In this document: positions 43,438-62,317 of the stretch, piece after piece | Numbering within the stretch: the stretch's first letter is position 1 | Layout of the letters: each line of letters begins with the position of its first letter | NCBI GenBank assembly: GCA_018663505.1 | Contig: JABJQG010000036.1 | Span: forward strand, 2,680 to 66,679 | From: Pseudobdellovibrionaceae bacterium | GTDB taxonomy: Bacteria; Bdellovibrionota; Bdellovibrionia; Bdellovibrionales; UBA1609 | DNA: 64,000 nucleotides | Reading direction: 5' to 3' | The notes under the pieces: model-generated | What the model was told of the DNA's origin: nothing | The model's database searches: none | What the model saw: the letters and a program-made list of their open reading frames with translations, nothing else | Translations under genes and position numbers: made by a program

Positions 43438-43467
43438 TGAGATACCAAGATGTGCTTGGCTTGCAAA

Positions 43468-45843
43468 TCAGATTTTGCAAGCACCACCATCACAGCCGTC
43501 ATCTTCTTCCATTCCATGTTCATCACTGGAGCCATCTTTAGTATTATGATAATAAAGTGTTTTAATACCCAGCTTATATGCCAAGAGAAGATCACTAAGC
43601 AAGAGTTTCATAGGAACCTTTCCTTCCGGATAACGGGCTGGATCATAATTTGTGTTGGCAGAAATGGCTTGATCTACAAACTTTTGCATTACCCCAACTA
43701 ATTGCAGGTAACCTTTGTTATCTGCGATACTCCAGTTTAACTCATAATCGTCTTTTAATGACTCATAATCTGGCACAACTTGCTTTAATACACCGTCTTT
43801 GCTCGCTTTTACGCTCACAAAACCTCTTGGTGGCTCAATACCATTTGTACTATTAGACACTTGACTAGAGGTCTCACTAGGCATTAAGGCCGTGACTGTA
43901 CTATTTCTTAAACCGTGCTGCTTAATATCTGCGCGTAAGCCATCCCAATCTAAATGCAATTTTTCATCACAAATCTTATCAATTTCTTTTTTATAAGTAT
44001 CGATAGTCATTAAACCTTGTGCATATTTTGTTTCACTAAATTTATGACAAGGACCTTGTTCTTGCGCCAACTTATTGGATGCCTTTAACAACCAAAATTG
44101 CAGGGCTTCAAAGGTTCTATGAGTTAAATTCAAACCTGACCCATCAGAATACTTCGCTCCATTTTTAGCTAAATAATAAGCATAGTTAATCACACCCACA
44201 CCCAATGGTCTGCGATCCATTGAAGAACGATAGGCTGCATCTATAGGATAACTTTGATAATCCAGCAAACCATCCAAAGCGCGAACAACTAAATCGGAAA
44301 GATTTTCTAACTCATCAAGTTTATCAATGGTTCCCAAGTTAATAGCGGACAAAGTACAAAGTGCGATTTCCCCTTCTTTATCCTCTACAGAATTTAAAGG
44401 CTGTGTGGGTAAGGCAATTTCCAAACAAAGGTTACTTTGACGAATAGGAGCTACCTTAGGATCAAAAGGACCATGATCATTAGTATGATCCACATTTTGT
44501 AAATAAATTCTTCCCGTATTAGCCCTTTCTGATGCGAACAAAGAAAATAACTCTATAGCTGGTACAGATTTTTTACGAATATTCTCATCTTGTTCAAACT
44601 CTTCATAAAGACGTTTAAATTCATCTTGGTCTGCAAAAAAAGCATCGTAAAGACCAGGAACATCTGAAGGACTAAACAATGAAATATTTTTTGATTGAAT
44701 TAAACGTTCATACATTAATTTGTTAAACTGAACCCCATAATCTAGGTGACGAACACGGTTTTCGTCTACCCCTCTATTATTTTTAAGCACTAGTAAAGAT
44801 TCTACTTCTAAATGCCAAACTGGGAAAAACAATGTGGCTGCACCACCTCGTACTCCACCCTGGGAGCAGCTCTTTACAGCTGATTGAAATAATTTATAAA
44901 ATGGTATACAGCCTGTGTGAAAAGCCTCTCCACCTCTAATGGGAGACCCTACGGCTCTAATTTTTCCAGCATTTACGCCAATACCTGCTCGTTGACTCAC
45001 ATACTTCACAATGGAAGATGCTGTGGCATTAATTGAATCTAAGGAATCTCCACATTCAATTAATACACAAGAGCTAAACTGACGGGTTCTTGTGCGAACT
45101 CCTGCCATAATGGGAGTTGGTAGTGATATTTTAAAAGTAGATGTGGCATCATAAAAACGTTTTACATAACCCATACGTGTTTCTTTAGGGTATTTTGCAA
45201 ACAAAGTAGCGGCAATCATCATATATAAAAACTGCGGACTTTCAAAAATTTCACCGGTAACACGGTTTTGAACTAGGTACTTACCTTCAAGTTGTTTAAT
45301 GCCAGCGTAACTAAAACTGAGATCGCGACTGTGATCTAAATATTTATCTAAATCAATAAACTCTGCTTGTGTATAAAATTCTAAAATTTCAGAATCATAC
45401 CACTCAAGGTCCACCAAACGTTTTATATGATTATACAAAGACGGAGGAGCAAATTGCCCAAAGGCTCTTTTTCTTAAATGGAAAACAGTTAAACGTGCAG
45501 AAAGATATTGATAATTAGGATAGCTTTCTGAAATTAGATCAGCAGCAGCTTTAATAATTGTTTCATGGATATCATAAGTTTTAATACCGTCAAAAAACTG
45601 AATTTTAGATTTAAGTTCCACTTCAGATACAGAAACATTATCAAGACCTTCAGCAGCCCACGCAATAACCTTATGTATTTTTTCTAGATTAAGAGGCTCC
45701 TTTTCGCCATTTCTTTTAACTGCATAAATAAGCTCTTTACTTTTATGTAATGAAGCACTTTCTGAAATAACTTTGTCAACTGAAGCCCCCTGCGCGCCAT
45801 TATCTCTTAACTCATCTTTGACTTTTACTCTTTCAATTTCCAT
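43468..45843 (-). CDS. nrdA: Ribonucleotide-diphosphate reductase class Ia alpha subunit
   Basis: 791 aa with an ATP-cone (VKRNGEKEPLNLEKI), the active-site regions (SNLCLEI, PSETSS) and an E. coli-like C-terminus ..CDGGACKI. Confidence 0.93.
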   Translation of the reverse strand: MEIERVKVKDELRDNGAQGASVDKVISESASLHKSKELIYAVKRNGEKEPLNLEKIHKVIAWAAEGLDNVSVSEVELKSKIQFFDGIKTYDIHETIIKAAADLISESYPNYQYLSARLTVFHLRKRAFGQFAPPSLYNHIKRLVDLEWYDSEILEFYTQAEFIDLDKYLDHSRDLSFSYAGIKQLEGKYLVQNRVTGEIFESPQFLYMMIAATLFAKYPKETRMGYVKRFYDATSTFKISLPTPIMAGVRTRTRQFSSCVLIECGDSLDSINATASSIVKYVSQRAGIGVNAGKIRAVGSPIRGGEAFHTGCIPFYKLFQSAVKSCSQGGVRGGAATLFFPVWHLEVESLLVLKNNRGVDENRVRHLDYGVQFNKLMYERLIQSKNISLFSPSDVPGLYDAFFADQDEFKRLYEEFEQDENIRKKSVPAIELFSLFASERANTGRIYLQNVDHTNDHGPFDPKVAPIRQSNLCLEIALPTQPLNSVEDKEGEIALCTLSAINLGTIDKLDELENLSDLVVRALDGLLDYQSYPIDAAYRSSMDRRPLGVGVINYAYYLAKNGAKYSDGSGLNLTHRTFEALQFWLLKASNKLAQEQGPCHKFSETKYAQGLMTIDTYKKEIDKICDEKLHLDWDGLRADIKQHGLRNSTVTALMPSETSSQVSNSTNGIEPPRGFVSVKASKDGVLKQVVPDYESLKDDYELNWSIADNKGYLQLVGVMQKFVDQAISANTNYDPARYPEGKVPMKLLLSDLLLAYKLGIKTLYYHNTKDGSSDEHGMEEDDGCDGGACKI

Positions 45844-46293
45844 TCTTTTTTCCCTCTTAATTTAGCACTTTTCAGTGATCAAATTTCAATTTTGAGAAAA
45901 AGAAACCACTTTATGGTTACCCATAAACAAAGAATTCCTTTTCTTAAAGTAACAGCAAAGCCATTTGCTGCATCTTTTTTCTATGATTTTACTCGTGCAA
46001 ACACTCATCCGAAGAGTCATCGTGTTGATAGGACATAGCCTAGCGATCTCAACTTAATTTCGTCAATAAGAAGAAGTTGCGTCACCAAAATAAAGTATTT
46101 TTTTTCTCTAATCCAATCTATTTAATTCTCAAATCAAAATTAGACTGCCGATTTTATCAGCTGCTTAATTATGTAACTGTATGGATATAAAAACTGAATA
46201 TAAATTAAACAGCACAATAATCGTACATTTAATAAACTCTATTCATAAATTAATTAAGAAAATACCGGAGGGTTATTTAAGATTATAAATCTA

Positions 46294-46866
46294 TTAATTA
46301 ATGAGTGAAGACTCAATGTAAAGGTAATGATGGTCATTGTCTTTAATAGCTTCAAAATAAATACCTTCATTGAGATGAAACTCAAAACTACGATCTGTAG
46401 TAAAGCTAATGATCATTCCTAAATTATTAAATTGGCTTGTGACAATGTCCCCATATATATTAATAAATTCAATACCCTGGCCTGTGGTTCTTAGTTCGTT
46501 CGATAGCCTTTTGCTAGTATCTTTGGACAAGCCATAGTTAATACTATTTTTAGCTCTTTTTGATCTTGATTTATTACGAATAATTTTAGGAGCCCAGTAA
46601 ACAAATGGAACTGATGTTGCTCCAAGTGCTTCTAAGTGAGTAAATACAATAGACATTCCATACATGGATGACTTGGAAACCTTCACTTTACCTTTTGCTA
46701 ATTTTATTTTAACATTTTCTTCCTGAATATTTTTATCTCCCTCACTAAATAAAACTGAATTCCAGTAAGGTAAGTCAGCGAAGACCCAATGTTCATAATC
46801 ACTTGCCCAGCAAAATTGAATTTGTAATGATAATATAATTGTCAAAAAAAGCAGTTTAGTTTTCAT
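46294..46866 (-). CDS. Exported protein, paralogue-family member (full-length type), last gene of the nine-gene operon
   Basis: I prefer the internal Met (MKTKLLFLTIILSLQIQFCWA) at 46866 over the ORF-track start at 46956. It shares HWVFADLPYWNSVLFSEGD and EFINIYGDIVTSQFNNLGMIISF...YLYIES with ORFs 51629, 52231 and 52839. Confidence 0.6.
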   Translation of the reverse strand: MKTKLLFLTIILSLQIQFCWASDYEHWVFADLPYWNSVLFSEGDKNIQEENVKIKLAKGKVKVSKSSMYGMSIVFTHLEALGATSVPFVYWAPKIIRNKSRSKRAKNSINYGLSKDTSKRLSNELRTTGQGIEFINIYGDIVTSQFNNLGMIISFTTDRSFEFHLNEGIYFEAIKDNDHHYLYIESSLIN

Positions 46867-47440
46867 AACTATCCTCTGTTTTACTGTAAATAAATTTAAT
46901 GATTGCCACAGGAGGTTTATTTTTTTCAATGAGAATAAATTGGTTGGGATTTTCATTAGAGCGTCGAAATTGATATTTTGGAGTACTAAAACTTGTTATC
47001 TGTGCCGACTTATCAAATCTTATGACCTGGACGCTGCCAAACTGATTAATAAAATAATAAGACTCTTCCCATCTCACTAGTTCTTGGTTCCATTTGTTTT
47101 TGATTTTCTCAATGAGTTCATTGAGTACTTTATTTTCCAATTGTTTGTGTTTAAGTTCATCATAATCGGCATACATAGTATGCCAAGCTCCTAAGAAAAC
47201 AATATTGGCAAACAAACTATCACCGTGACCCTTGTAATTTTCAAGATCCTCGATTGTTTTAATGTAACTCTGGTTGGGACTGTTAAGAAGCTGAAATATA
47301 TAAGCTGATGGAATTGGGATTTCAAGAACCTCTAACTCTTTAGAATAAGAAAGCATTGAAAGTATAATTAACGTAAATGTGATAAGCAATTTCATATATA
47401 TCCGTACATTGTTTAGGTTAATTCTTAGAATTTTTTTCAT
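46856..47440 (-). CDS. Exported protein sharing the C-terminal module of the paralogue family
   Basis: 194 aa. The likely true start is MKLLITFTLIILSMLSYS at 47395. The C-terminal YFINQFGSVQVIRFDKSAQITSF...FILIEKNK aligns with the family module. Confidence 0.55.
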   Translation of the reverse strand: MKKILRINLNNVRIYMKLLITFTLIILSMLSYSKELEVLEIPIPSAYIFQLLNSPNQSYIKTIEDLENYKGHGDSLFANIVFLGAWHTMYADYDELKHKQLENKVLNELIEKIKNKWNQELVRWEESYYFINQFGSVQVIRFDKSAQITSFSTPKYQFRRSNENPNQFILIEKNKPPVAIIKFIYSKTEDSYEN

Positions 47441-48788
47441 GACTTGCTAATGCCTCTAAAGTTGTAGTTAACTGAGTAAATGGTTTAAAAAGATCATCAC
47501 TGATAAATTGAGAAAATTCATCTTCATTAGAGAGAAGGTCATTATATAAAATTACATACGTGGGGTGATCTTGAGATATAACAGTACTTAGAAACTGGGA
47601 AAACTTATGGTCAGTACTGTAGGAATTTGAATCCAATTCTGCTTTTAATACTTCAGCTGCATTTTTAAGCCCCTCAATATTTAAAGTAAATACTGATTTC
47701 TGCCCAGGGTACAAAGATATAATACCTACTTTTTGTACTCTACCATTCAATTCTAAGCGTATATAATCACTTACCGAAGTAATGACTCTTCTTTCACCAT
47801 TTTCTAAAATAACCGTTGCTAATAAATCTTGTTCCGATTTCCAGGAGCTAAGGTATGGAGAATTGCGAGAGTCATTAAACAACTCAGTACTTAAGCCAAC
47901 AATCTGTGCCCCTATTGACAAACTATTTCCTGTTCCATGAGGAATTATACTTGCTGTGGCAGTGGGCCGGGTTTCCAAAGGGCTGTAAAATTCAACACCA
48001 TTAAATTTAATAATTTCATTTTCATAGTCATAGGAGTAAGATCTTTTTTTTCCACCAAGCATAACATCCAGTCCACTCTTGATATCTCGCGCGCCAACAA
48101 CATGCATAGTTATATTACTCACCTTTTGAAATGTTCTTGTACTTAATGAGGAAAACAACCCCACCATCTGATCGTTTTTTTCATCTAAGCTTACACTTCC
48201 ACCAGAAATTCCGAATCCACCAACACCTATAGCAATGATTTCATTTTGAACATCAGGGCGTTTTATCGATTGACTATTTAAATTCTGTATTTTCAACGTG
48301 GTTGCCAAAAAGTTATTATGACTGCCCGACAGGTATGCAGAACCGTAAGCTTCAGTTTCTTTTTGGGGCAATACCAAATCTGTATCAAGATTTGCCTTTT
48401 TTATCCCACGACAGTCTTTGCTGTCCATCCCCTTAAGTAAAGCTGTTTCTGTACCCCAGTCACGGCCAATAATCATAACAGGTACGGTTTTATGTTTTTT
48501 ACTTGTTAAAAATACGCTTGTGTCCCCAATGGGTTTTAACCCTAGAGTATGATCTGCTGTTATATAATAACAATCATCGCTTTTAATATTTTTATAATTA
48601 AATTTTGAAATATCCAACAAAGTGGCAGAAGCTTGTTCTAAAGTGCCTCCGGACTTACTATTATAAGCTGATGTTAAATTTGTTAATGAAAATATATTTT
48701 TAGGATACATCTTTTTAGAATACAATTCTCTGGCAAATAACGAGGAAAACATTCCTAATAAAACTATTAATAAAACGAGTGATTTCAT
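47418..48788 (-). CDS. Exported protein with an N-terminal trypsin-like (S1/Trypsin_2-type) serine protease signature
   Basis: 456 aa with a signal peptide. ITADH (His), then ETALLK about 35 residues later (in the position of D-[IL]-A-L-L-K), then GFGISGGSV (G-x-S-G-G) about 115 residues after the His. The C-terminal ~250 aa are unassigned. Confidence 0.45.
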   Translation of the reverse strand: MKSLVLLIVLLGMFSSLFARELYSKKMYPKNIFSLTNLTSAYNSKSGGTLEQASATLLDISKFNYKNIKSDDCYYITADHTLGLKPIGDTSVFLTSKKHKTVPVMIIGRDWGTETALLKGMDSKDCRGIKKANLDTDLVLPQKETEAYGSAYLSGSHNNFLATTLKIQNLNSQSIKRPDVQNEIIAIGVGGFGISGGSVSLDEKNDQMVGLFSSLSTRTFQKVSNITMHVVGARDIKSGLDVMLGGKKRSYSYDYENEIIKFNGVEFYSPLETRPTATASIIPHGTGNSLSIGAQIVGLSTELFNDSRNSPYLSSWKSEQDLLATVILENGERRVITSVSDYIRLELNGRVQKVGIISLYPGQKSVFTLNIEGLKNAAEVLKAELDSNSYSTDHKFSQFLSTVISQDHPTYVILYNDLLSNEDEFSQFISDDLFKPFTQLTTTLEALASHEKNSKN

Positions 48789-50050
48789 TTGTTCTCTCCA
48801 AGTAGGGTTTCTAATTTTAATAAATTTGATAACAAACTATTTGTAATAATAGATAGTTCTTTTTCTCGAGCATTGGTTACAGAAAATCTTCCATCAAGAT
48901 TTTCAAGTAAATGAATAAAACTAATATTATCTGCACTTTTATTTTTTTCTTTTAAAGAACGTAATGCCTTCTCTATATATTTAAGAACAATGTCATTATC
49001 ACTAGAAGCTTCTGTGTAACGAATTGCCGTTTTTATGTTGTATTGAATTTTATTGACCCTTAGATCCCAGTGTTGGGGTAAAAATAACTTGAGGGTAGAA
49101 ATATGAGACTTGGCCATTTTTAACTGCGCTAAAACCCTATTTGAGGCCCAATTATTAGATTTATCTTTTATGACTTGCATGGCTTTATAAGCGTGACCAA
49201 TATATAAACTAATGGGAAAACTACTACTCCAATGATCATTAATCTCTTTTAAAAATGAATCATAAGCAAGAACTTGACTTACAAGATTATACTTTTTTAT
49301 TTCAATATCTTTAACACTCATCTTGTTAGTATTTAACCGAATGTAGCTATTGCAAATTTGGATTAATTCTCGAAATGATTCAGATAAAAATGGATAATCC
49401 TTTCTAAAATCAGAAAGTTTACGACTCATAAAAACAATAGATGAGCCAATCGTATCTGGCAAAACATTATCTCTGGATAACACCATCATAGAGGGTTTCA
49501 GCTCAACATAAAGTTTCCCCATTTTTCTTGAAACTTCTCTGAAGTTTTTATTGCTAATATCGGAATTACAATAAGGGGAGTTAAAATTTGTTCTAAGCAA
49601 TCGCTCAAATTGACTCATATCGCGCACAGCAATCATACCATCTAAAAGTATACTTGTGCGACCCAAGGGCTCCTCCACAAAGCAACTTAATTCAGAAATA
49701 TCAGTAATACTTGAATGTGAGTTTAAGTAGCGCCAGTAGTGATCAATTACCAATAGCTCTAAGTTATGGAAGTACTTTAAACATTGAGTATTTGCAGAGT
49801 TTGGCTCACAAGGTTCAATTGTCGGAGTCATTAATTCAACAAACTGACTTAAATTATTCACATTTTTTAAGCAAGACTGTTTTACTGATATTCTATAATC
49901 AAGGGATTTACTTTTTTCTTCAAAACGACATTGCACTATATTTAATAGCGGTGATTCTGCTAAGGCGACACCCGTCCATATAGATACCAAAAAAACACTA
50001 ATTAATAATTTTTGCACATTATCTCCCATCCGCACAATAACGAATTCCAT
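48785..50050 (-). CDS. Hypothetical exported protein (Cys-rich N-terminal part, helical remainder)
   Basis: 421 aa ORF. Its start region overlaps the stop of the upstream gene (50019-50050), and its own stop overlaps the downstream gene's start by 4 nt (48785-48788). Leader is LLISVFLVSIWTGVALA. No motif recognised. Confidence 0.5.
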   Translation of the reverse strand: MEFVIVRMGDNVQKLLISVFLVSIWTGVALAESPLLNIVQCRFEEKSKSLDYRISVKQSCLKNVNNLSQFVELMTPTIEPCEPNSANTQCLKYFHNLELLVIDHYWRYLNSHSSITDISELSCFVEEPLGRTSILLDGMIAVRDMSQFERLLRTNFNSPYCNSDISNKNFREVSRKMGKLYVELKPSMMVLSRDNVLPDTIGSSIVFMSRKLSDFRKDYPFLSESFRELIQICNSYIRLNTNKMSVKDIEIKKYNLVSQVLAYDSFLKEINDHWSSSFPISLYIGHAYKAMQVIKDKSNNWASNRVLAQLKMAKSHISTLKLFLPQHWDLRVNKIQYNIKTAIRYTEASSDNDIVLKYIEKALRSLKEKNKSADNISFIHLLENLDGRFSVTNAREKELSIITNSLLSNLLKLETLLGENK

Positions 50051-51632
50051 TGTTCATCACTAAATCAATAAATGTTTGCAAGTTTTTCATAGACTTAGTT
50101 CTATCTTGTACATGCTTACACTCTTTACCCAAAATCTTTAATGCACTTGTATTCCCATCCTTACACATATTTTCTAGTCTATTAATAGAACGAGATCGTG
50201 GTTTTCTCTCAAGAGATTTAAAGTAAACATTATCTGTTGTATCAACCAACTCAATCAGCTGACTGGGCCCATTAATCTTAATAATTGGGTATTGTTCACC
50301 TACCCATTTTAAAGGGATGTTCAAGTAGTTTGAAATGGTCAAACGAGTTTCTGTATTTAATTTTTCTTCAAAGCGTAAATGTGTCTTAATAGAGAAAACT
50401 AGGTCACGAAGAGTTTTGTCTGAATATTCATCTGTATAATAATACTTTTTCAGATGATTCCTTTGAGATTCATCCAAGCTTGCCACCGTGCCGTCACATT
50501 TTTTTAGTGTAAGCTCAGCTTTGTCTAAGCTAAACAAGTCTAAGTAATTTTGAATATTAACATGAGTTAACTCTTCTGATAACTCCAGCCACTTGTCTGT
50601 GATATTTTGATATTTTTGTTTAAGCTCAGGTGCATTTATATTTAGTGGATCAAAAAAACTTAAAGCAGGCTCACTAATCAAGACTAATTCTTCCTCAATG
50701 AGCTCTATGTATTCTTTTAAATTTTCAGACTGGGTGGAACTAAGATCTGCAGTGATTATCTCTTTATTTGCATAATAATCGGTCAAGGTATTAAGTTCTT
50801 TTTTAGCAATCCAAGTTTGAGGATAGTAAAATTCACCGATGTATTTCAAGTCACTGTGTTTTTTTCTTTTCTTAAGTTCATTAGGCAAATGGTACCTTAG
50901 TTTTTTGAGCATATGAAAAGGCTGTACTGGGGTAAAATTCTTTCTACCATGCTCTTTGATATCTAGAAAAGAAAGGGTTTCTTTAAGGGGAGATAAACAA
51001 TTAAATGATAATTTATCATAGTCATCAGTCTCACCTCCGTATTTACCATATACTTTGTCTAAGTGTTGTATAAGCTGATTTAGTTTTACTTTGGAAAGTT
51101 GGAAACGTAAACTCCATATATTACGTGCAAAGGAATATCCAAGCTCCATACCAAAAAAGAGATCCACAACACTGACACCCGTTCGGTAATACCCTGCCAT
51201 TCCTGGTTCATTGGGGTTAAAGTTATACACACGGTCACCAACCCTTACAGCACCATGCCCCCAGTAGGTATTAAACCCTTCTTTTTTCTTACTATGATAG
51301 TTCAATTGTTCCATGAAATAAAATTCAACCGTATTTTTCTCGTAATCAAAATATTTCGTAGTTTCAAAAGGTAAAAAATTAATTTTAAGGTCAATTAACT
51401 CGTGTGTATTTTTACTGATCTTAATATTATTTTTGGCTATGGGAATAGCTACTTTTTGTGAAAGGGTTAAAGCCCCCTTATAGTGTTTTAGCTCATATCT
51501 CACATTTGTCGTTTCATCTATTATGTACTGCTTCAGGCTGTTATCTGATTGGATAAAACCCGTAATGAAACCAGGTATAGCAAAGACATTTGTGCTTAAA
51601 AAAATGAAAAGTATTAGACTTAATATTTTCAT
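50019..51632 (-). CDS. Exported protein with a permuted-papain (PPPDE/DUF862-like) His...Cys signature
   Basis: 537 aa with a signal peptide. YWGHGAVRVGDRVYNFN, then about 75 residues later DDYDKLSFNCLSPLKETLSFL. This resembles the PPPDE pattern H-x-G/A-[IV]-x-V-x-G-x-x-Y-x-F ... Y-x-[LIV]-x-x-x-NC-x-x-F/L. Confidence 0.4.
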   Translation of the reverse strand: MKILSLILFIFLSTNVFAIPGFITGFIQSDNSLKQYIIDETTNVRYELKHYKGALTLSQKVAIPIAKNNIKISKNTHELIDLKINFLPFETTKYFDYEKNTVEFYFMEQLNYHSKKKEGFNTYWGHGAVRVGDRVYNFNPNEPGMAGYYRTGVSVVDLFFGMELGYSFARNIWSLRFQLSKVKLNQLIQHLDKVYGKYGGETDDYDKLSFNCLSPLKETLSFLDIKEHGRKNFTPVQPFHMLKKLRYHLPNELKKRKKHSDLKYIGEFYYPQTWIAKKELNTLTDYYANKEIITADLSSTQSENLKEYIELIEEELVLISEPALSFFDPLNINAPELKQKYQNITDKWLELSEELTHVNIQNYLDLFSLDKAELTLKKCDGTVASLDESQRNHLKKYYYTDEYSDKTLRDLVFSIKTHLRFEEKLNTETRLTISNYLNIPLKWVGEQYPIIKINGPSQLIELVDTTDNVYFKSLERKPRSRSINRLENMCKDGNTSALKILGKECKHVQDRTKSMKNLQTFIDLVMNNGIRYCADGR

Positions 51633-52234
51633 TGCACTTCCTTGGGTATGAAATTAGGCTCAACGTAAAGGTGAATACTTTCATTATCACCTTGTTTCGC
51701 GACAAAGTAGCTTCCATTATCATGGTCATAAAGTTCAAATTTCATATTATTACAGATGAATGACTGTAACATCCCCATGTTATTGAACTCTGCAGACTGT
51801 ATTTCACCAAATAGATTTATAAAGCTAGCCCCATCATCATTAGATCTAAGATCTAAATTTAAATTTTTCGTAAGAGACCTCATTCTATAATTAATACTGT
51901 TAATATTTGACTTAATCTCACTACTTTTAACCGGTCCTTGAATAGCTGAAGGACCAATGATTGCCCATTTATATATGATAGGCTCGGCTGCTCCAAGAGC
52001 AAGAACTGTCCCAACACCAACCAAACTAGATATCCCAGCTGCTTTACTATGTCGACTATAGCTAAGTGAATTAGTTTTCGCCTCATGCATTCTTTGCAGA
52101 GTTCCATCTCCAACACCATAAAGGACGTTTTGCCAAGTAGGCATATTCCCTACTATCCAAAAAGCACATGACGACTGAGCAATGAGAATAGACATTCCAA
52201 TAGTTAAACCTTTTAAAATAATCTGACGTTTCAT
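51629..52234 (-). CDS. Exported protein, paralogue-family member (full-length type)
   Basis: 201 aa with AFWIVGNMPTWQNVLYGVGD, a Gly/Ala-rich hydrophobic stretch, and SFINLFGEIQSAEFNNMGMLQSF...YFVA...LYVEPNFIPKE. Confidence 0.6.
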   Translation of the reverse strand: MKRQIILKGLTIGMSILIAQSSCAFWIVGNMPTWQNVLYGVGDGTLQRMHEAKTNSLSYSRHSKAAGISSLVGVGTVLALGAAEPIIYKWAIIGPSAIQGPVKSSEIKSNINSINYRMRSLTKNLNLDLRSNDDGASFINLFGEIQSAEFNNMGMLQSFICNNMKFELYDHDNGSYFVAKQGDNESIHLYVEPNFIPKEVQ

Positions 52235-52842
52235 TTCACATCCTCACTTTCGGGAATGAAATTTGGCTCTATAAATAACTCAGTGGCATTATGATCACCA
52301 TTTTGACTGATAAAATAATGTCCTTTATTGTCATTAACAAGTTTAAAATTGACCAAGGTAGCAGTTGTAAACGACTGTAGTATTCCAAAATAATTAAATT
52401 CAACAGATTGAATTTCACCAAACTGATTGATGAAAGATTTGCCGTTAATATTTTCCTTAAGTTCTGAATTTAAGTGTTTAGTGGTCACTCCAATTTCATA
52501 TTCCAATTGATCATTATCTGAGCTTACATCACTGCTCTTTATAGGTGTCTGGAAGGCCACCATCCCACCTAATGCAAATCTAAGAATTTCTATTGTTATT
52601 CGCCCCTCAGAGAATGCTCCCCCAACAAGTATAGCTGATGCCCCCATGGCCTTTGTATTAAAATAAAAGTTTGATGTTTTAATTTTTTGTAAATAAGCTT
52701 TTTGAATTCCCTGATCTCCAGCTCCGTAGAGAACGTTTTGCCAAGAGGGCATATTCCCAACGATCCAAATCGCATATGTGGAATGAGTAGTAATAATCGA
52801 CAATGCAATAGCTAAACATCTTAAAATAAACTGGTGTTTCAT
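52231..52842 (-). CDS. Exported protein, paralogue-family member (full-length type)
   Basis: 203 aa with AIWIVGNMPSWQNVLYGAGD and SFINQFGEIQSVEFNYFGILQSF...YFIS...LFIEPNFIPE. Confidence 0.6.
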   Translation of the reverse strand: MKHQFILRCLAIALSIITTHSTYAIWIVGNMPSWQNVLYGAGDQGIQKAYLQKIKTSNFYFNTKAMGASAILVGGAFSEGRITIEILRFALGGMVAFQTPIKSSDVSSDNDQLEYEIGVTTKHLNSELKENINGKSFINQFGEIQSVEFNYFGILQSFTTATLVNFKLVNDNKGHYFISQNGDHNATELFIEPNFIPESEDVK

Positions 52843-53429
52843 TTCACATCCCCATCTACCGTAATAAAATTGGGTTCTATAAAGAGTTCTATAGGATCTT
52901 CATTTTTTAAAGTACTAATGAAGTAATATCCTTGATCATTATTTACTAGTGTAAATTTTGTGTTATTATTGGTACTAAATGTTTTTATCATTCCAAGTTT
53001 ATTCATATGAGCAGATTTTATTTGTCCAAATCTACTTATAAAGGAACGTCCATCCACATTGCTGTTAAGTTCTTCATTCAATTTAGCTACGGTCACGTTT
53101 ACAGCAGAATCGATACCTCTTTGTGATGAAATATGTGTAATAACAGAACCTACAATTTTCAAAGGAATTCCTACTTGTGCAAAGTCCTTTAGCCACACAG
53201 AGTCAGTATCCACCAGTAATACACCAATCCCGGTGCCTGATTTTATGGAACGTTGACCTCCAAAGCTTGCTTTATACGCTGCATGAGACTCTTTAACCAT
53301 CTCGTCGCCTTCACCATAAACTATATTGTTCCACGTTGGCATATCACCCATAATTGTATTCGCGTGAGCACTTGGGGTAACAATATTGATTAAGCAACTT
53401 GTATATAAAAATGTGATTATGAACTTCAT
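52839..53429 (-). CDS. Exported protein, paralogue-family member (full-length type)
   Basis: 196 aa with NTIMGDMPTWNNIVYGEGD and SFISRFGQIKSAHMNKLGMIKTF...YFIS...LFIEPNFIT. Confidence 0.6.
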   Translation of the reverse strand: MKFIITFLYTSCLINIVTPSAHANTIMGDMPTWNNIVYGEGDEMVKESHAAYKASFGGQRSIKSGTGIGVLLVDTDSVWLKDFAQVGIPLKIVGSVITHISSQRGIDSAVNVTVAKLNEELNSNVDGRSFISRFGQIKSAHMNKLGMIKTFSTNNNTKFTLVNNDQGYYFISTLKNEDPIELFIEPNFITVDGDVK

Positions 53430-53992
53430 AAATTTTCTAGCTCCTCAATAAATTGAACATCAGCAATATACTGGCCGCCTGGTGCTAGTACTTTAAAAAC
53501 GTAAGAATCAAGGTCAACTCTTTTAAGAACGTACTTAGAAGTAATTAGTCTTGTTACGTCACCAAACTTATTAAAACGCACAGTAACAATTGCACCAAGT
53601 GCATTTAATATAGAGTAAGAATCTGCATTATTCTTTAGAGCCGAATTTATATCTTTAGTGAGTTCTAGTTTAATTTCAGCTAGGTTATTGTGTAAAACGT
53701 GATCAAGCTTAAGTCTCTTGTAGGGCTTAAACCACATATTATCATTAGCAATAGGAATAATTTCACCTAGTTTAAATTCATTAATTTTTTCACGCTTTTC
53801 ATCAAACTCTACAAGCTTTTGCTTATAAAATTCTTTATATTTATCAAAGGTTTTTAATCCTAGCGTATTTACTATTGGGACAAGAATAAGCTGAACCCTT
53901 TTTTCTTCTTGTGCGTACATACCAGCTTTAAAAAACTGACAAAACACAAAAGTGAAAGCTAGGAGTATTTGCAATGAGAATTTACTGAACAC
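53426..53992 (-). CDS. Exported protein sharing the C-terminal module of the paralogue family; first gene of the nine-gene operon
   Basis: 188 aa with a leader (LQILLAFTFVFCQFF). The C-terminal SILNALGAIVTVRFNKFGDVTRLI...YVFKV...VQFIEE aligns with the family module. Confidence 0.55.
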   Translation of the reverse strand: MFSKFSLQILLAFTFVFCQFFKAGMYAQEEKRVQLILVPIVNTLGLKTFDKYKEFYKQKLVEFDEKREKINEFKLGEIIPIANDNMWFKPYKRLKLDHVLHNNLAEIKLELTKDINSALKNNADSYSILNALGAIVTVRFNKFGDVTRLITSKYVLKRVDLDSYVFKVLAPGGQYIADVQFIEELENL

Positions 53993-54251
53993 GAGTGAAA
54001 ATCCTTTAAGTTAATTGATTAATTACTAATTTCTTATGCAATATTGAAGCTCATTATAGGGGGAGAAATACAAATAGCTACTTAACTGTCCTAAAACAGT
54101 TAAGTAAATGATATCACACATAAAATCGTATTTTTTTTGCCACCATCAAGAAGAGCACAGAGAGTCTTGAAAAAATTATACTGGAACTTTTTTCTAAGTT
54201 AATGAACATCTACATTACAAGCATGAAATTAGTTCAAAATAAAACTTTAAA

Positions 54252-57155
54252 TCATAGAATTTTGGTAGTTAGACGTTTGCTCAGGCTGTATCCGGAATCT
54301 TGGTTTATAACTAAATCTGAAATGCTTAATTCATTTTCGATAATTTTTTTTAGACGACTAATATTAACGTAGAGTGTTTGATCATGTTGATCTGGATCAT
54401 AATTTTGATCCCATATTTTTTGCACCAAGCTTTCTTTATCAATAAAGTTACCCTTACACTGCGAGAGAGTATAAATTAAATCAAAAAGAAGTTTCTTTTT
54501 TTCTAGAGATACAATGTTTAAGTTTTGATTAGAAATTAACATAATCGAAGGAATAATATATAAGTCGGAGTCTCCAAGAACAAAATTTAAGAATATATCT
54601 TTACTCATTGAAAACCCAAGCTTTTCAAATACTGAATTAAATATATTACTGAATAAAATGGAAAACTGCTTATCAGAATTAAGAAATATTTTTCTACAAG
54701 TGCTCAAATCAATTGAAACCTTATCCCAATTATTTGACTTATAGTTATGAATTATAGAAGAAAGTGAAAACAATAGCTTACATATTCTAAAACCAAGATT
54801 ATCTAAATTATTTTCTACTTTTAGGAATTCATGAATTCTCTCCTCTGCATTTTTAAAATTCGCATTAAAGCAATCCTGTAAACAAATTATTGCTTGTGTG
54901 TTCCAATATAACCAAGGTGATTCAATATTTAAATGAGCATTTTTTAGATCAAAGGTATTTGATTCTGTTAGCAATAATTTGGATAATTGAGAGTATAGAG
55001 CATACTGATCAAGCTCTAATTTTGAAATATTAGATGGTAACTGTGGTTGATTTATCGATAAATCAAACAATTGTTTTCTGGCTACAGTTAATCCATCGAT
55101 GCTTTCTAGCTTACTAACTACACCTGAGACATAAAGCAGTTGTTCAATTAAGTGTTTTTCCCTAAGGTCCTGTATGTTTTTTAACTCATATTTCAGAACC
55201 TCTGCCTTTTCCTTTAAAGCCGATTTTTTTAATAAAAGAAAATCTTGCTCCATTTTCAAACGTGAAATCCTCCATCTAAAGGGACTCTTTGCTCTATTAC
55301 GAAGTAATCCCTCTGCTGATTCTAAGCTGTTGGTACTTTTACTATACTCACCCATAGCTAAATAAATTTCGGAGATATAAATCTTGTGAGCCACTTGTTG
55401 ATTTTTACTTCCATGCAATAATGTTTCAGGCTTTGCCTGCTCTAGTACATCTATGGCAGAAATTAATTGATTGCTTGTGTATAGACGATTAGATTCATAA
55501 AATACAACTGAGACTTTTAAACTAGGATTGGAACGTTTCTTAAGCAACTCTTTAAGTTCCTTCAAAAGAGTACTAGCCGTATTTTCTTTACCTAATTCAT
55601 CTAAAGCTATACACATATTATATATGGTACGTTGTTGATCCAGTATTTGTAAATTTAACTTTGAAAGGTCATAGGCCTGTTTTGAGTATTCATAGCTTTT
55701 TTTGAAGTCAGCCACCCAAAATAAATCTATGCCAAGTTGATAAAGATGGTTATATTTAGTTTTGTACTGTGTCTTGTTATCAAATGTTGAAACAGCACTA
55801 ATTCTTGCTGCACAAGCCTTTCGGTAATCATGATTCTCCCTATCGAGCAGGGCTTTCCAATGAAGAAAATCAAAGTTTGAAATCTTATCATTTTCAGAGA
55901 TCATAGACTCAAACAATTTAAAATTTTCTTTAAATTTATCTATATCTTTTGATTGATAGGAAAGCTGACATACTGTGTTTATAAAAGGTATTGTCATTTC
56001 AGAGTTCAAACCATTTTCTTCAAGAATATTAAGATAACAATTTGCTCGTTCAAAATTTTCTTGCTCAGTGCTCAATTCAATATCTATAACTATAAGTTCT
56101 TTAATTTGATATTTCTTACTTACTAAAGTATCATTAAGAATATTAAATTCAGAATATTTTCCATTCTTTAGAAGCTCTCTGGCGTATTCTACTATCAGTC
56201 CTTTGTTTATTATTTTACCCATTTTTAGTAAATAGAATATCGATTCTTTATCATCAAGTACATCTACTAATTCATCGAACACTCCATCTAAAAATTCATT
56301 TTTTAGATTTTTAGGAAAATATTCAAGTAAACTTGGAGACAGATATACCTTATTGTCATTTTGCATTAAAAATTTACAACTTAATAGAGTTTTACACTTC
56401 TCTTTTGTTGAATCCGCTAATTTCTGATAATGACTCTCTGGTATAGCCCCCCAATGATAGAATTTAATCATTACATCTTTAGTATCTTCGGTTAGATTTT
56501 GGTCAAGCCACTCGTCAAAATTATTTTGAATATTATTAATATTGTCATTTGAAGCTATAATCAGAATTAAACCAGGATTTTTAATATCAGATGGTATTGC
56601 TTTTTGTGATTTTAATTTTTGCACAAGCATTCTTGAATCTATGGTTGAAATTCCGTTTAGATGTTGAAACTGTATGTGATGTAAGTTCTGACTCTTAAAA
56701 CTTGGTTTAGATATGGATGTAATTATTAGCTTTGATTTTTTGAAATATCTATTACATGCCTCTATTAAACTTTCAATTGCGGAAAGTTCAACATAATCAA
56801 TACCATCAATTAAAATTAAGTATTTCTTTGACTCCCAGTAATACACAATTTCATGAATGGTTTCCTCTAAGCCTAATTCATTGACTATTTTTTGTTTAGG
56901 CTTGGGAAGACTTAAGGATAAGGTTTTAAAAAAATCATCGTAATTGGTAAACTCATTTAAGTTTAAGAATAATGGTTTTAATTTGTTTTTTTCAATATAT
57001 TGATTGCATACTTTATAGCAAAATTCAGATTTACCAATTCCATGTTCACCATACACATCAATAACAGAACAGTCATTAATGATATGATTAAAATTACTAA
57101 GCTCATTATTATAGCCAGTAAAATATTTAGTTTCAGGGGGGATCCTTGTATACAT
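54252..57155 (-). CDS. STAND-type P-loop NTPase with a helical-repeat (TPR-like) body and a C-terminal OmpR/PhoB-type winged-helix DNA-binding domain
   Basis: 967 aa. The N-terminal YFTGYNNEL resembles the FVGRE-EL lead-in of STAND ATPases. Walker A is GEHGIGKS and Walker B is YLILIDGID. A long helical region follows. The C-terminal ESLVQKIWDQNYDPDQHDQTLYVNISRLKKIIE...GYSL is a trans_reg_C signature. Confidence 0.7.
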   Translation of the reverse strand: MYTRIPPETKYFTGYNNELSNFNHIINDCSVIDVYGEHGIGKSEFCYKVCNQYIEKNKLKPLFLNLNEFTNYDDFFKTLSLSLPKPKQKIVNELGLEETIHEIVYYWESKKYLILIDGIDYVELSAIESLIEACNRYFKKSKLIITSISKPSFKSQNLHHIQFQHLNGISTIDSRMLVQKLKSQKAIPSDIKNPGLILIIASNDNINNIQNNFDEWLDQNLTEDTKDVMIKFYHWGAIPESHYQKLADSTKEKCKTLLSCKFLMQNDNKVYLSPSLLEYFPKNLKNEFLDGVFDELVDVLDDKESIFYLLKMGKIINKGLIVEYARELLKNGKYSEFNILNDTLVSKKYQIKELIVIDIELSTEQENFERANCYLNILEENGLNSEMTIPFINTVCQLSYQSKDIDKFKENFKLFESMISENDKISNFDFLHWKALLDRENHDYRKACAARISAVSTFDNKTQYKTKYNHLYQLGIDLFWVADFKKSYEYSKQAYDLSKLNLQILDQQRTIYNMCIALDELGKENTASTLLKELKELLKKRSNPSLKVSVVFYESNRLYTSNQLISAIDVLEQAKPETLLHGSKNQQVAHKIYISEIYLAMGEYSKSTNSLESAEGLLRNRAKSPFRWRISRLKMEQDFLLLKKSALKEKAEVLKYELKNIQDLREKHLIEQLLYVSGVVSKLESIDGLTVARKQLFDLSINQPQLPSNISKLELDQYALYSQLSKLLLTESNTFDLKNAHLNIESPWLYWNTQAIICLQDCFNANFKNAEERIHEFLKVENNLDNLGFRICKLLFSLSSIIHNYKSNNWDKVSIDLSTCRKIFLNSDKQFSILFSNIFNSVFEKLGFSMSKDIFLNFVLGDSDLYIIPSIMLISNQNLNIVSLEKKKLLFDLIYTLSQCKGNFIDKESLVQKIWDQNYDPDQHDQTLYVNISRLKKIIENELSISDLVINQDSGYSLSKRLTTKIL

Positions 57156-57191
57156 GGCGGTAATTATATCATGGGTTTTTAAAAGGTTAAA

Positions 57192-57209
57192 GCCCCGCGC
57201 AATGCGGGA
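57192..57209 (-). terminator. Possible short GC hairpin terminator
   Basis: cccgc-gcaat-gcggg is a 5-bp GC stem in an AT-rich context just downstream of the 57236 gene. On the minus strand the following tract ctttaacctttt is only weakly U-rich. Confidence 0.3.
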
Positions 57210-57235
57210 CTTTGGGATAGTGATATTTGGGGATT

Positions 57236-57667
57236 TTAATCACATTCTTCATTGAGAGCTACTAATATTTCCACTCCTGCCATTAGAATTTCATTTATTA
57301 CCGCCTCTCTGTTAGGTGCTTCCTCCAACTCACCTAACTGTTCTTCTATTTCGCAATATGCCACTTTAACATGCCCAATGCTCTTTCTTACTCGCACATC
57401 AAGCAAAGATTGGCTGGCATCAACAACTCGTATAGCATTTCTTACTTTTTTATTAATCTTCGTAAACACTTCAAACCTTACTCGATCACTAACAGAATCT
57501 TTGGCAATGGGTATTACGCATTTTAGAGCCTCAAGAGCATCAATTACCTGATCTCCATAAGTGGTTTTAGTCATACATAAGTTGATTCCTTGATGCTTAT
57601 AATTATAGTTTCCAGAAAAGGCGTTGAGGCTAGCAAGTGTAATTATCATTATAGTTAAAAATTTCAT
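57236..57667 (-). CDS. Hypothetical small secreted helical protein
   Basis: 143 aa with a signal peptide (MKFLTIMIITLASLNAFS|G). No motif recognised. Confidence 0.5.
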   Translation of the reverse strand: MKFLTIMIITLASLNAFSGNYNYKHQGINLCMTKTTYGDQVIDALEALKCVIPIAKDSVSDRVRFEVFTKINKKVRNAIRVVDASQSLLDVRVRKSIGHVKVAYCEIEEQLGELEEAPNREAVINEILMAGVEILVALNEECD

Positions 57668-57722
57668 ATTATCTCCTGTTCTTATATTGTAAATATTATT
57701 AATTATTTTATTTAGTTATTTA

Positions 57723-58733
57723 TTAGTAGTTTTGGTAAAGTTGCTTAGCTTTATCCATAGCTTCTGAAAAGTACATTAAATCGTATTGTCCATCCTCCCC
57801 AAGATTTTCAGAAATGGCATTTATTTTTAGGTCATAAATAGAGAACATTTCTTGAGCATCCTCTCCAGCACAGGCATCCTCTTGTTTACACGACAACATT
57901 TTTCTAGCAAATTTATTTACTTTAAGTTTCAAACCATGAGTGAGCTCAAGACGGTTGGCATCAGAAAAATAATTCTGAACAACCTCAAGTGCGCTCAATA
58001 ACTCTTCACCAATGAGTAAATTATCTCTACCACGACCTGGAGGAAGAATAATACGACCACGGTTATCTACAGGCGCTTCCCATTTAAGAACAATCTCTCT
58101 AACCTCGGGCTTATCATCTGAAGCATAAATTTGTAAATTATCAGGGCAATCATTGATATCAATTGAGTAAGGTCTAGTATGCGATCCCTCACTAAGCGTT
58201 ACTGTCTTTTTAATTTGGCCATCATTAACATATACAGCAAGGCTAGCTTTTTCATCTCTAAAAAGACCAAACTCGTTGGTGGTTCCCCAAACAGTCATTG
58301 ATTTTAAGATGTAACCCTCATATTGATTAGTTGCCTTATCCATTTTAAATATCAAATCACCCTCTTTAAACTTAACTCCATCTGAATGAGACGATGTGGT
58401 TGGACCATCATGCTTACCTCTCATTCCTTTAAATGCACGAGGATCATTAAAGCCATTGTTTTTATAACCGTTTGAATTTGTCTTTACGTCATCCTTGTAA
58501 AAAGTGATCCTCTCTGTATAACTATTTCCAATCCATTGGCTAAAACAATTACTGTTTCTATTAAGTAAGCATGTATTTGGGGTGACACCCAGCTGCTGAG
58601 CAAGCCTTCTATTATATTTTTGTTGAGACTCTTTTGGACTGCGATCATGTGAGAATTTATTCTTTGCGTGAATTGGCAGAATAAACCCGATGGTTGCAAT
58701 TCCATTTATTATAATTTTTAAAGTTTTTTTCAT
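57723..58733 (-). CDS. Hypothetical exported protein
   Basis: I prefer the internal Met MKKTLKIIINGIATIGFILPIHA (58733) over the ORF-track start at 58793. That gives about 336 aa. No motif recognised. Confidence 0.5.
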   Translation of the reverse strand: MKKTLKIIINGIATIGFILPIHAKNKFSHDRSPKESQQKYNRRLAQQLGVTPNTCLLNRNSNCFSQWIGNSYTERITFYKDDVKTNSNGYKNNGFNDPRAFKGMRGKHDGPTTSSHSDGVKFKEGDLIFKMDKATNQYEGYILKSMTVWGTTNEFGLFRDEKASLAVYVNDGQIKKTVTLSEGSHTRPYSIDINDCPDNLQIYASDDKPEVREIVLKWEAPVDNRGRIILPPGRGRDNLLIGEELLSALEVVQNYFSDANRLELTHGLKLKVNKFARKMLSCKQEDACAGEDAQEMFSIYDLKINAISENLGEDGQYDLMYFSEAMDKAKQLYQNY

Positions 58734-58965
58734 TCTATCTCCTTTTAGATAATTTCTTAAATGCAAACTAAGTGCAGAGCGTGTTTCAAACAACTAAAGC
58801 TTTCTAAAATTTCTAAGTAAATGTATTCATTGATGTATTTAAAGAATAATAAATTTAAAAATTTAACTTACTAGTAAAATATATTACTCATGCTTGAGGT
58901 CTTTAAAAATTAGAATTTTAATAACGAGCTGACTCAGATTAAAATTTTTAACAAACGAATGATAA

Positions 58966-59289
58966 TTACTCTAATATCTCACTAATGGCTTGGTATATTT
59001 GGTTTTCAGAGTATGGTTTTTTAAAATAATAATGGGCTAAATTGCGTATCTGATCTCGTTGTTCTTTTGAATACTCAGTGGCAATTCCACCTGTTATCAC
59101 TATAAACTTTAAATCATTGTGACCTTCATTAATAAGCTTTCGTATAAGAGCATCACCACTAAGCTTTGGCATTTTTAAATCGGTAATCACTATATCATAT
59201 TTTTTTAGTTTAATCTTTTCATAAGCCTGTTGCCCATCTAAGGCTTCTTCAACTTGAAGACCAAAATGCATAAGGGATTCTTTTAGCAA
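58966..59289 (-). CDS. Receiver (REC) domain fragment, in frame with the upstream histidine kinase across a TAA stop
   Basis: The ORF-track start is TTG. It contains DIVITDLKMP (phospho-acceptor Asp), VITGG and FKKPY (conserved Lys). It lacks its own beta1/DD acidic pocket, which lies at the end of ORF 59305-60342. Confidence 0.7.
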   Translation of the reverse strand: MLKESLMHFGLQVEEALDGQQAYEKIKLKKYDIVITDLKMPKLSGDALIRKLINEGHNDLKFIVITGGIATEYSKEQRDQIRNLAHYYFKKPYSENQIYQAISEILE

Positions 59290-59304
59290 GTTCCTTATTG
59301 CTTG

Positions 59305-60770: not shown

Positions 60771-60779
60771 ATATCTTTC

Positions 60780-61859: not shown

Positions 61860-62317
61860 AAACTTTCCCTTTTAATCATTATATGTATCCATGGGTAAAT
61901 ATGACAAGTTAAGAAATATTAGTAATATGAATTAAATTGAAAGCTAACTAACATTCTTTTTCCCTACAGCATACGACATACATATACGCTGTGCCCACAG
62001 GTGATTCCAAAAGACGTACTTGTAGTAGCTAAATTAATTGATGAAACGTTGAGCACAATTCGTTGACGTTACTTTAAACGACACCAATTCTTTAGTATTG
62101 ATTTTATTTAAATATTAAAGGAACATTTTTGAAATCTAATCATAAGCTACCAGGACCAGACTTAAGATCAGAGAGTAATTGCTGTTCCAAAATGGGGCAT
62201 AAGCATTATGATACTTAAAAAACCGTGGTTAAAAGGTCAATGTGGATAAACTGAGAAAAAAACAGACAGCTGAGTGTACTTGCTTGTGATTGCGCCTATA
62301 AGTATAAAGTCTAATTA

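Follow-up and report, generated by a model that had tools for sequence, protein, structure and literature searches.

Gene content of the locus

We analyzed a gene cluster in a 64,000-nucleotide stretch of DNA from a Pseudobdellovibrionaceae bacterium (GenBank assembly GCA_018663505.1, contig JABJQG010000036.1, positions 2,680 to 66,679 of the forward strand), which we refer to as the window. The cluster contains a gene for a STAND-type regulator, a downstream run of nine genes for exported proteins (g1 to g9), and 2 genes for exported proteins upstream of the regulator gene (up1 and up2) (Table 1). The original prediction comprised the regulator gene and g1 to g9, and its coordinates for these 10 genes, all on the minus strand, were reproduced in a six-frame list of open reading frames (ORFs). 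It also proposed that 5 of the junctions between the 9 downstream genes are ATGA-type overlaps of 4 nt, and all 5 (53426-29, 52839-42, 52231-34, 51629-32, and 48785-88) read TCAT on the plus strand, that is, ATGA on the coding strand. The longer overlaps that it described for the other 3 junctions stand less firmly, because those of g6, g8, and g9 vary with the start codon chosen: g6 may start at 50050 or 50029 and g8 at 47440 or 47395. The most likely start of g9, whose ORF is open to 46956, is position 46866, which is preceded by a GAGGA Shine-Dalgarno sequence and is also the choice of the metagenome gene callers, and which results in an 11-nt overlap with g8.

As a unit, the 10 genes proved too small. 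The 2 exported genes directly upstream (57236-58733) are conserved with the cluster in the distant genome UBA1609 described below, and the cluster should therefore reach to about 58733. The up2 ORF can be extended to a TTG codon at 58793; its likely start is the ATG at 58733, which has a AAAGGAGA Shine-Dalgarno sequence and matches the N-terminus of the orthologue. Signal-like leaders had been noted on every product of the operon, and g1 to g9 (9/9) indeed start with a hydrophobic segment, after which there is a plausible cleavage site of the AxA or small-x-small type. Sec-type leaders and conserved cysteines are found in all 11 non-regulator products.

Scans of Pfam, NCBIfam, PADLOC, and PHROG produced no significant family for g1 to g9, in agreement with the earlier statement that none of the 9 products could be placed outright in a named family. 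The best PADLOC match, a TPR model on g2 (E 0.0026), was judged not credible. No relative of g6, up1, or up2 was present in any library searched, and profile searches of the PDB with up2 gave nothing credible. For the 421-aa g6 protein, already described as having no detectable signature, the only candidate was Synapsin_C, with 22.9 bits against a gathering score of 22.5; the g6 orthologue does not match this model, and we rejected it as a false positive. A phage origin is not indicated, since neither a viral-contig scan nor the PHROGs gave a match. An Rfam scan of the 45-60 kb region detected no RNA element. The view that the block is an accessory island because of its AT content found little support: the mean G+C content of its genes is 0.334, compared with 0.362 +/- 0.027 for the other genes of the window (a difference of about 1 standard deviation), the corresponding values at third codon positions are 0.272 and 0.294 +/- 0.033, and the upstream region at 59-62 kb is as AT-rich as the gene block.

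Table 1. Genes and candidate control sites of the cluster in the window, with the counterparts in UBA1609 (length, blastp identity, and E value).
Feature	Position	Strand	Description	UBA1609 counterpart
Motif copy CATTTACTTAG	58813..58822	-	About 80 nt upstream of the up2 start, in region 58794-58965
up2	57723..58733	-	Exported, 336 aa, 5 conserved Cys, no known family	323 aa (L008 3834-4805), compared with 57723-58793; 32%, E 2e-49
up1	57236..57667	-	Exported, 143 aa, helical, 4 invariant Cys, no known family	149 aa (L008 3355-3804); 37.5%, E 3e-30
Hairpin	57189..57213	-	Between up1 and regulator; GC-rich 10 bp, then U-rich; -16.4 kcal/mol, z -3.3
Promoter-like site, regulator gene	57163..57190	-	TTAACC, 16 nt, TGnTATAAT; consensus match only
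Regulator	54252..57155	-	967 aa; N-terminal P-loop STAND-type NTPase, helical, possibly TPR-like body, C-terminal OmpR/PhoB-type winged helix	991 aa (AAA_22 + Trans_reg_C); 30%, E 3e-137
CATTWACTTAR, 3 copies	54194-54203, 54100-54109, 54006-54015	-	Exact 94-bp spacing, upstream of g1, in spacer 53993-54251
Palindrome	54078..54107	-	13-bp perfect, 4-nt loop, in the 259-bp regulator-g1 spacer; -14 kcal/mol, z -4.6
g1	53426..53992	-	Exported, 188 aa, divergent g8-type; GTG start, AAGGA Shine-Dalgarno
g2	52839..53429	-	Exported, 196 aa, g9-type
g3	52231..52842	-	Exported, 203 aa, g9-type; sequence used for the AlphaFold2 model
g4	51629..52234	-	Exported, 201 aa, g9-type; Gly-rich hydrophobic segment at residues 65-83
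g5	50019..51632	-	Exported, 537 aa; His126/Cys212 motifs and 4 further conserved Cys; possible permuted papain-like hydrolase	511 aa; 27%, E 4e-56
g6	48785..50050	-	Exported, 421 aa, mainly helical, 5 conserved Cys, no known family	424 aa; 22%, E 3e-18
g7	47418..48788	-	Exported, 456 aa; predicted trypsin-fold (HtrA/Trypsin_2-like) serine peptidase with a C-terminal domain of about 220 aa	447 aa; 34%, E 7e-35
g8	46856..47440	-	Exported small protein, g8-type	221 aa, g8-type; weak similarity
g9	46294..46866	-	Exported, 190 aa, g9-type	203 aa, g9-type, best to g3; 31%, E 2e-19
Terminator-like hairpin, weak	46147..46161	-	About 130 nt after the g9 stop; -8 kcal/mol, z -2.2

Conservation of the gene set and its protein families

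The contigs that encode P0010, a member of the small-protein family analyzed below (L008 to L011, L015, and L016), belong to one organism, Bdellovibrionaceae bacterium UBA1609 (GenBank), whose proteins are labeled by NCBI as 'hypothetical protein [Bdellovibrionaceae / Pseudobdellovibrionaceae bacterium]'. We compared the UBA1609 locus with the window proteins by blastp and found counterparts of 8 genes of the cluster (Table 1). In order of transcription, the genes for the 323-aa, 149-aa, and 991-aa proteins follow one another on one strand, and the other 5 genes are located divergently on the opposite strand. The conserved core consists of 2 modules, up2-up1-regulator and g5-g6-g7-g8-g9, which share a strand in the window and diverge around a 294-bp control region in UBA1609. 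The flanks are nrdAB and a kinase/response-regulator pair in the window, and an esterase-like gene, a Y1 transposase, and toxin cassettes in UBA1609. Genes g1 to g4 are absent from the orthologous locus and are, judging from this comparison, a lineage-specific extra cassette. Because the gene set is conserved at the protein level in a distant genome, we consider the cluster to be more than chance. The original prediction had made its case depend on conservation of the neighborhood in another genome, and the orthologous set of UBA1609 provides it.

The number of Cys residues is equal within each orthologue pair (g5 5/5, g6 7/7, g7 2/2, up1 4/4, and up2 5/5), and the Cys conserved in the alignments are all 4 of up1 and 5 each in g5, g6, and up2. 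This conservation between orthologues fits exported proteins that are disulfide-bonded. The order g7-like, g8-type, g9-type was seen again on metagenome contigs L006, L007, L012, and L014. On L007, a third and more distant g7-like gene (25% identity) is located directly upstream of the gene for P0008, a fused small protein. On L006, the g8-type gene is preceded by a fragment that had no statistical assignment to g7; by eye, only an S.SD(Y/F)(I/V)R motif is recognizable in it. Scanning genomes and metagenomes with the g7 pair returned the UBA1609 lineage only, and in 2 pattern-limited scans of GTDB 1 of 185,579 species genomes was positive. In the collections searched, the distribution amounts to 2 full loci and 4 fragmentary lineages; so far, the cluster is confined to a small number of marine Bdellovibrio-like bacteria. 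As the only related genome, UBA1609 agrees with a placement of the window organism in the Bdellovibrionota. Positions 42902-62842 of the window recur as contigs L001 to L005 in 5 independent metagenome assemblies (ENA ERZ27250242, ERZ23491573, ERZ4201033, and ERZ23491584, and JGI 3300004278) with 99.99-100% identity. Since the same sequence is present in 5 assemblies, we take the window to be a genuine environmental genome and not a chimera; the recurrence points to one nearly clonal population that has been sampled repeatedly.

Downstream of the UBA1609 locus (L008:11976-20612), a Y1-type transposase gene is followed by approximately 15 small ORFs on the minus strand, in which Tox-MPTase3 and YD-shell fragments occur together with internal DNA repeats that are 86-93% identical. 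This region looks like a polymorphic-toxin/immunity cassette array, and nothing like it was found beside the window locus.

The small exported proteins had originally been grouped as 6 paralogues of one family. This is clear for g2, g3, g4, and g9 (blastp E 1e-14 to 1e-57), whereas g1 and g8 make up a second, more divergent subfamily, in which the 2 proteins are similar along their entire length (E 8e-7) and share mainly the C-terminal half with the other paralogues. In an exhaustive HMMER search of 1.84 billion representative proteins, a profile of the 6 sequences retrieved 12 clusters only, the 6 of the window and P0008 to P0013, and we therefore regard the family as real but extremely rare. 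When g5 and the paralogue alignments served as queries in word-indexed homology searches, the window's own proteins were the only ones found, plus P0013 in the last search; a genome scan with the g2-g4 alignment gave no match, and a profile search of the PDB with the family gave nothing credible. The g9-type subfamily (g2, g3, g4, g9, P0009 to P0012, and the N-terminal half of P0008) has an N-terminal W(I/V)VG(D/N)xPxW motif and a central Gly/Ala-rich stretch. The g8-type proteins are g8, P0013, g1, the 221-aa UBA1609 protein, and a 185-aa protein on L012.

At every locus, a g8-type gene is located directly upstream of a g9-type gene: in the window g8 precedes g9, and g1 precedes g2, g3, and g4; in UBA1609 the gene for the 221-aa protein precedes that for the 203-aa protein; on L006 and L014 P0013 precedes P0009; and on L012 the gene for the 185-aa protein precedes that for P0011. 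P0008 (L007:1327-2406, 359 aa) is a natural fusion of 2 family domains, of which the first is g9-type, and such a Rosetta-stone protein hints that 2 family members act together. Because the bit scores group g2, g3, and g4 in a tight clade and place g8 and g9 nearest to the L006 pair, we read g1 to g4 as a duplicated g8/g9 cassette in which the g9-type gene was triplicated in the window lineage. On L006, a further ORF with a signal peptide (MKSLIITCLYTFFCVFSLDSYSKDMEIT..., 1603-1686) begins right after the g9-type gene, so that in this lineage the 2 gene types may continue to alternate after the first pair. The g3 model, obtained with AlphaFold2 from 12 sequences of the family (predicted local distance difference test score, pLDDT, 76.4; predicted template modeling score, pTM, 0.64), has an N-terminal strand, a low-confidence helical hairpin (residues 66-99), a long helix (residues 103-130), and a five-stranded C-terminal sheet. 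Foldseek found no match to this model, the best hits being at E 0.5 (template modeling score, TM, 0.22) in the PDB and at E 0.2 (TM 0.31) in BFVD.

The original idea that the 456-aa g7 protein is trypsin-like was supported by its orthologues, through sub-threshold Trypsin_2 and HtrA matches and through the retention of the His, acid, and Ser positions in 3 lineages. Against the PDB sequence set, a profile of the 2 g7 orthologues matched HtrA/DegP proteases only (E 0.03-0.07). In these matches, the CY(Y/F)ITADHTL segment of g7 aligns on the catalytic-His motif of HtrA proteases (GYIVTNNHVI) and VGRDWxTETALLK on their catalytic-Asp motif (VGRDPKTDLAVLK), and the UBA1609 orthologue matched a mycobacterial HtrA model of NCBIfam with E 3e-5, far below the cut-off. 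In the three-lineage alignment, His80 and Gly-x-Ser195-Gly-Gly are invariant and the triad is in the correct order; the acid at position 114 is Glu, Glu, and Asp, and Glu at this catalytic Asp position is unusual. No PDZ match was found with Pfam in g7 or its orthologues, and the C-terminal part of approximately 220 aa has a conserved PHGT motif and is an unrelated domain. From this support, which is sub-threshold but consistent, we conclude that g7 is a predicted trypsin-fold serine peptidase.

In g5, the motifs WGHGA(V/I)RVG (with His126) and YDK..NC (with Cys212) are invariant between the 2 orthologues, which, with only 2 sequences, is weak evidence; His126 precedes the Asn-Cys pair by 86 residues. 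By-eye resemblance of these motifs offers a lead, and only a lead, to a permuted papain-like hydrolase. The PPPDE-type assignment given previously to this 537-aa protein can be kept at the motif level; beyond that, g5 had no Pfam match and stayed below 1% in hhalign.

The regulator was originally described as a STAND ATPase with a winged helix, and the Walker motifs, AAA_22, and Trans_reg_C all confirmed this description. Walker A and Walker B read GEHGIGKS and LILIDG in the window protein and GEHGIGKS and IFLLEN in the UBA1609 orthologue. In Pfam, AAA_22 matched the window protein by a narrow margin (27.9 bits, cut-off 27) and NACHT scored under its cut-off (23.1 bits, cut-off 26.7), while the orthologue scored 34.7 bits with AAA_22 and, narrowly again, 23.7 with NB-ARC (cut-off 23.5). 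Trans_reg_C matched residues 889-945 (33.5 bits, cut-off 26.2), and among PDB sequences this winged helix matches the effector domains of WalR, VicR, and SaeR (E 0.005-0.02). Between the NTPase and the winged helix there is a helical, possibly TPR-like body of approximately 600 aa. Pfam found no TPR match in the window regulator itself; in the orthologue, TPR_MalT reached E 5e-5, yet its 23.1 bits fell short of the cut-off of 45, and TPR_12 reached E 6.5e-4. These matches support an architecture of STAND NTPase, TPR, and winged helix.

Directly upstream of the cluster (58966-63998), genes for a stand-alone response regulator (107 aa) and a histidine kinase (345 aa) adjoin it. The histidine kinase gene overlaps that of a 143-aa exported ORFan, itself preceded by a gene for a 359-aa exported ORFan, and farther upstream are genes for a 153-aa exported ORFan and a Pkinase-domain protein (62961-63998). 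A repeat of these kinase and ORFan genes was considered, but blastp showed no paralogy to up1 or up2, although the sizes are similar. Elsewhere in the window, the gene for an 834-aa protein with nine FG-GAP repeats (37888-40392; E 9e-78) adjoins a cation-efflux gene (40492-41424) and an Rce1-like CAAX protease gene (35609-36550).

Proposed transcription units and function, and rival explanations

The hairpin between up1 and the regulator gene is probably the terminator of an up2-up1 transcript. The 13-bp palindrome, whose left arm carries the middle copy of the CATTWACTTAR motif, is predicted to terminate transcription of the regulator gene, to serve as an operator, or to do both. The 4 copies of CATTWACTTAR by these genes are all on the coding strand, in a window total of 7 on both strands compared with 2.6 expected. 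The motif overlaps -35-like hexamers and may be a shared promoter sequence, an operator sequence, or both. Because of the hairpins and the shared upstream motif, we delimit 3 putative transcription units: up2-up1, the regulator gene, and g1 to g9. The reading that we tentatively prefer, with a probability still short of one half, is that these form a lineage-restricted regulon that encodes a regulator-gated exported proteolytic module.

In its favored form, the regulator would bind a cytoplasmic signal via its helical body and then ATP, and would oligomerize by analogy to the MalT/LAL and AfsR-type STAND regulators. The activated regulator would switch on the promoters bearing CATTWACTTAR upstream of g1 and up2, and g1 to g9 would be translated with coupling and their products exported via Sec. 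Outside the cytoplasm, the g7 protease would attack a target envelope, which the candidate Cys hydrolase g5 and the disulfide-bonded g6, up1, and up2 may assist. The target would most plausibly be prey, given that the one related genome belongs to the Bdellovibrionaceae, a family with known predators; in Bdellovibrio, secreted serine proteases are predation factors (PMC12546842). The g8-type and g9-type proteins would be a heteromeric partner of g7, acting as its pro-form or substrate, its adaptor, or its inhibitor. We propose a heteromer with the protease because of the strict g8/g9 pairing, the link with g7 in at least 3 lineages, and the P0008 fusion. The function as a regulator-gated extracytoplasmic proteolytic module we infer from these features together.

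Several observations weigh against this reading. The window g7 had no Pfam match at E<=1, and the almost full-model Trypsin_2 match of its UBA1609 orthologue (E 4e-5) scored 24.7 bits, under the cut-off of 27.6. A single-sequence AlphaFold2 model of g7 was unusable (pLDDT 35), and with Glu in place of the catalytic Asp in 2 of 3 lineages, the activity of g7 is not assured. No match to g5 was found in Pfam, NCBIfam, or a profile search of the PDB, and when its N-domain was compared by hhalign with DESI1 and PLA2G16 sequences, the probabilities were 0.1% and 0.7%, although at these values, below 1%, exactly the His and Cys motifs were aligned. CATTWACTTAR is not conserved in UBA1609, and its recurrence in the 2 spacers was reached in 6 of 200 dinucleotide shuffles (p about 0.03) for a motif defined post hoc. 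The prey-directed role, while plausible, derives from the lineage only.

Other explanations of the cluster were weighed as well. The proteins could make up a multicomponent membrane-active toxin, in which a heteromer of g8-type and g9-type proteins, activated by the g7 protease, inserts a Gly-rich hydrophobic helical hairpin into a target membrane, with g5, g6, up1, and up2 in accessory roles. The strict pairing of the 2 types and the natural two-domain fusion would fit a toxin of this kind, as would the Gly/Ala-rich stretch of the g9-type proteins, which reaches Kyte-Doolittle values of 1.77 in g4 and 1.51 in the UBA1609 protein and falls in the low-confidence hairpin of the model (residues 66-99). 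However, transmembrane-like hydrophobicity is found in only 2 of about 10 members, the g3 model has no structural match to pore-forming toxins in Foldseek searches of the PDB and BFVD, and the mature proteins, at approximately 170 aa, are far smaller than known binary alpha-pore-forming toxins; we consider such a toxin unlikely. We give about the same low probability to a self-directed role in envelope maintenance, with an HtrA-like periplasmic quality-control or remodeling protease and its adaptors induced by a particular stress or at a certain developmental stage of the bacterium itself. The only sequence relatives of g7 are HtrA, DegP, and DegS, all its partners are exported, and a histidine kinase/response regulator pair adjoins the cluster, but no PDZ domain was detected in g7, the genomic position differs between the window and UBA1609, and, with 12 clusters among the 1.84 billion representatives and 1 of 185,579 GTDB species genomes in the 2 pattern-limited scans, the family is too rare for a core envelope function.

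The proposal in the original prediction of a polymorphic effector/immunity-like array found no support in the library scans, which detected no toxin, trafficking, or defense domain. In such an array, the small paralogues would be immunity proteins or diversifying effectors against a secreted g5 or g7 toxin. The tandem expansion of the paralogues, and the UBA1609 locus being followed by a Tox-MPTase3/YD-shell cassette array and a Y1 transposase, would be in keeping with it; yet none of the 11 proteins contains a toxin, Rhs, contact-dependent inhibition, or type VI or type VII secretion system trafficking domain (domains of this kind are confined to unrelated genes beside the UBA1609 locus), PADLOC found nothing, the paralogues are ancient (27-44% identity) with a fixed two-subfamily order and no shuffling, and the toxin-cassette neighborhood is absent from the window, all of which makes such an array very unlikely. 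Least probable is that the genes are not a functional unit but a chance run of lineage-specific hypothetical ORFs downstream of a regulator gene. The lack of family annotation and the 'hypothetical protein' labels that NCBI gives to the UBA1609 orthologues speak for it, whereas 8 genes are co-conserved at 22-38% identity in UBA1609 despite rearrangement, putative catalytic and Cys residues are invariant, and 5 ATGA couplings are present. Conservation thus largely refutes this explanation, and the alignments support a genuine, conserved, and uncharacterised cluster.

A more far-reaching reading would make the cluster a novel extracellular weapon of marine Bdellovibrio-like predators, in which g8/g9 heteromers of a new fold are processed or delivered by a dedicated protease with a Glu-containing triad and by a novel Cys hydrolase, and the set is released under control of the STAND regulator. 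It would then represent a new class of regulated attack modules with several components; we regard this reading as improbable. Predatory bacteria are being mined for bacteria-killing enzymes, and much of their secreted repertoire is still without annotation. Here, 11 exported proteins are encoded in a compact cluster that is linked to a regulator and conserved in evolution. If directed at prey, the cluster would provide a new protease and effector set together with a STAND regulator of new architecture; the signal that induces this regulator could show how such predators sense prey, and with one regulator and one operon the cluster would offer a clean genetic handle. If self-directed, it would be a niche envelope module of limited general interest.

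Comparison with known systems

Among predation proteases, Bd2269 and Bd2692 of Bdellovibrio bacteriovorus (PMC12546842) resemble what we propose for g7 in that they are serine proteases with a signal peptide and a presumed action on prey. One of the two, Bd2269, is listed as a subtilase; no homology to such predation proteases was found for the window proteins, and neither Bd2269 nor Bd2692 is described with a STAND regulator or a comparable small-protein family. With HtrA, DegP, and DegS (MEROPS S1C; Pfam Trypsin_2), exported g7 shares the His, acid, and Ser motifs in the same order, and its local motifs, including GxSGG, align with those of HtrA. It differs from them by scoring under the curated cut-offs, by having Glu for the catalytic Asp in 2 of 3 lineages, and by lacking a PDZ domain, in place of which there is the unrelated C-terminal domain of approximately 220 aa with the PHGT motif. 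The motifs of g5 recall HWAIYVGDG of LRAT and Y.L...NC of PPPDE, in the PPPDE/DeSI and LRAT/H-RAS-like suppressor families. Unlike these proteins, g5 is exported, is far larger (537 aa), has a C-terminal half that contains Cys residues, and has no sequence match in Pfam or the PDB.

The regulator shares with MalT/LAL and AfsR/SARP proteins an N-terminal P-loop NTPase of the AAA_22/NB-ARC/NACHT kind, a long helical body that may be TPR-like (compare the weak TPR_MalT match of the orthologue), a DNA-binding domain in the same polypeptide, and a gene that adjoins its presumed targets. MalT/LAL proteins have a C-terminal LuxR-type helix-turn-helix, and in AfsR/SARP proteins the OmpR-type winged helix is N-terminal and accompanied by BTAD, for which no match was found in the window regulator; here, in contrast, the OmpR/PhoB-type winged helix is at the C-terminus. 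A full-text literature search found no paper naming 'STAND NTPase' together with 'Trans_reg_C', and this domain order (NTPase, TPR, C-terminal OmpR winged helix) appears undescribed. For the gene set, a literature search found no counterpart, which supports the original claim of a real cluster, with a STAND-type winged-helix regulator and an operon of exported proteins, that has no described equivalent. The Glu-containing triad, at least 9 of the 11 exported proteins, and the gene set as a whole appear undescribed, while the STAND regulator, the OmpR-type winged helix, and the predicted trypsin-fold peptidase are of known kinds.

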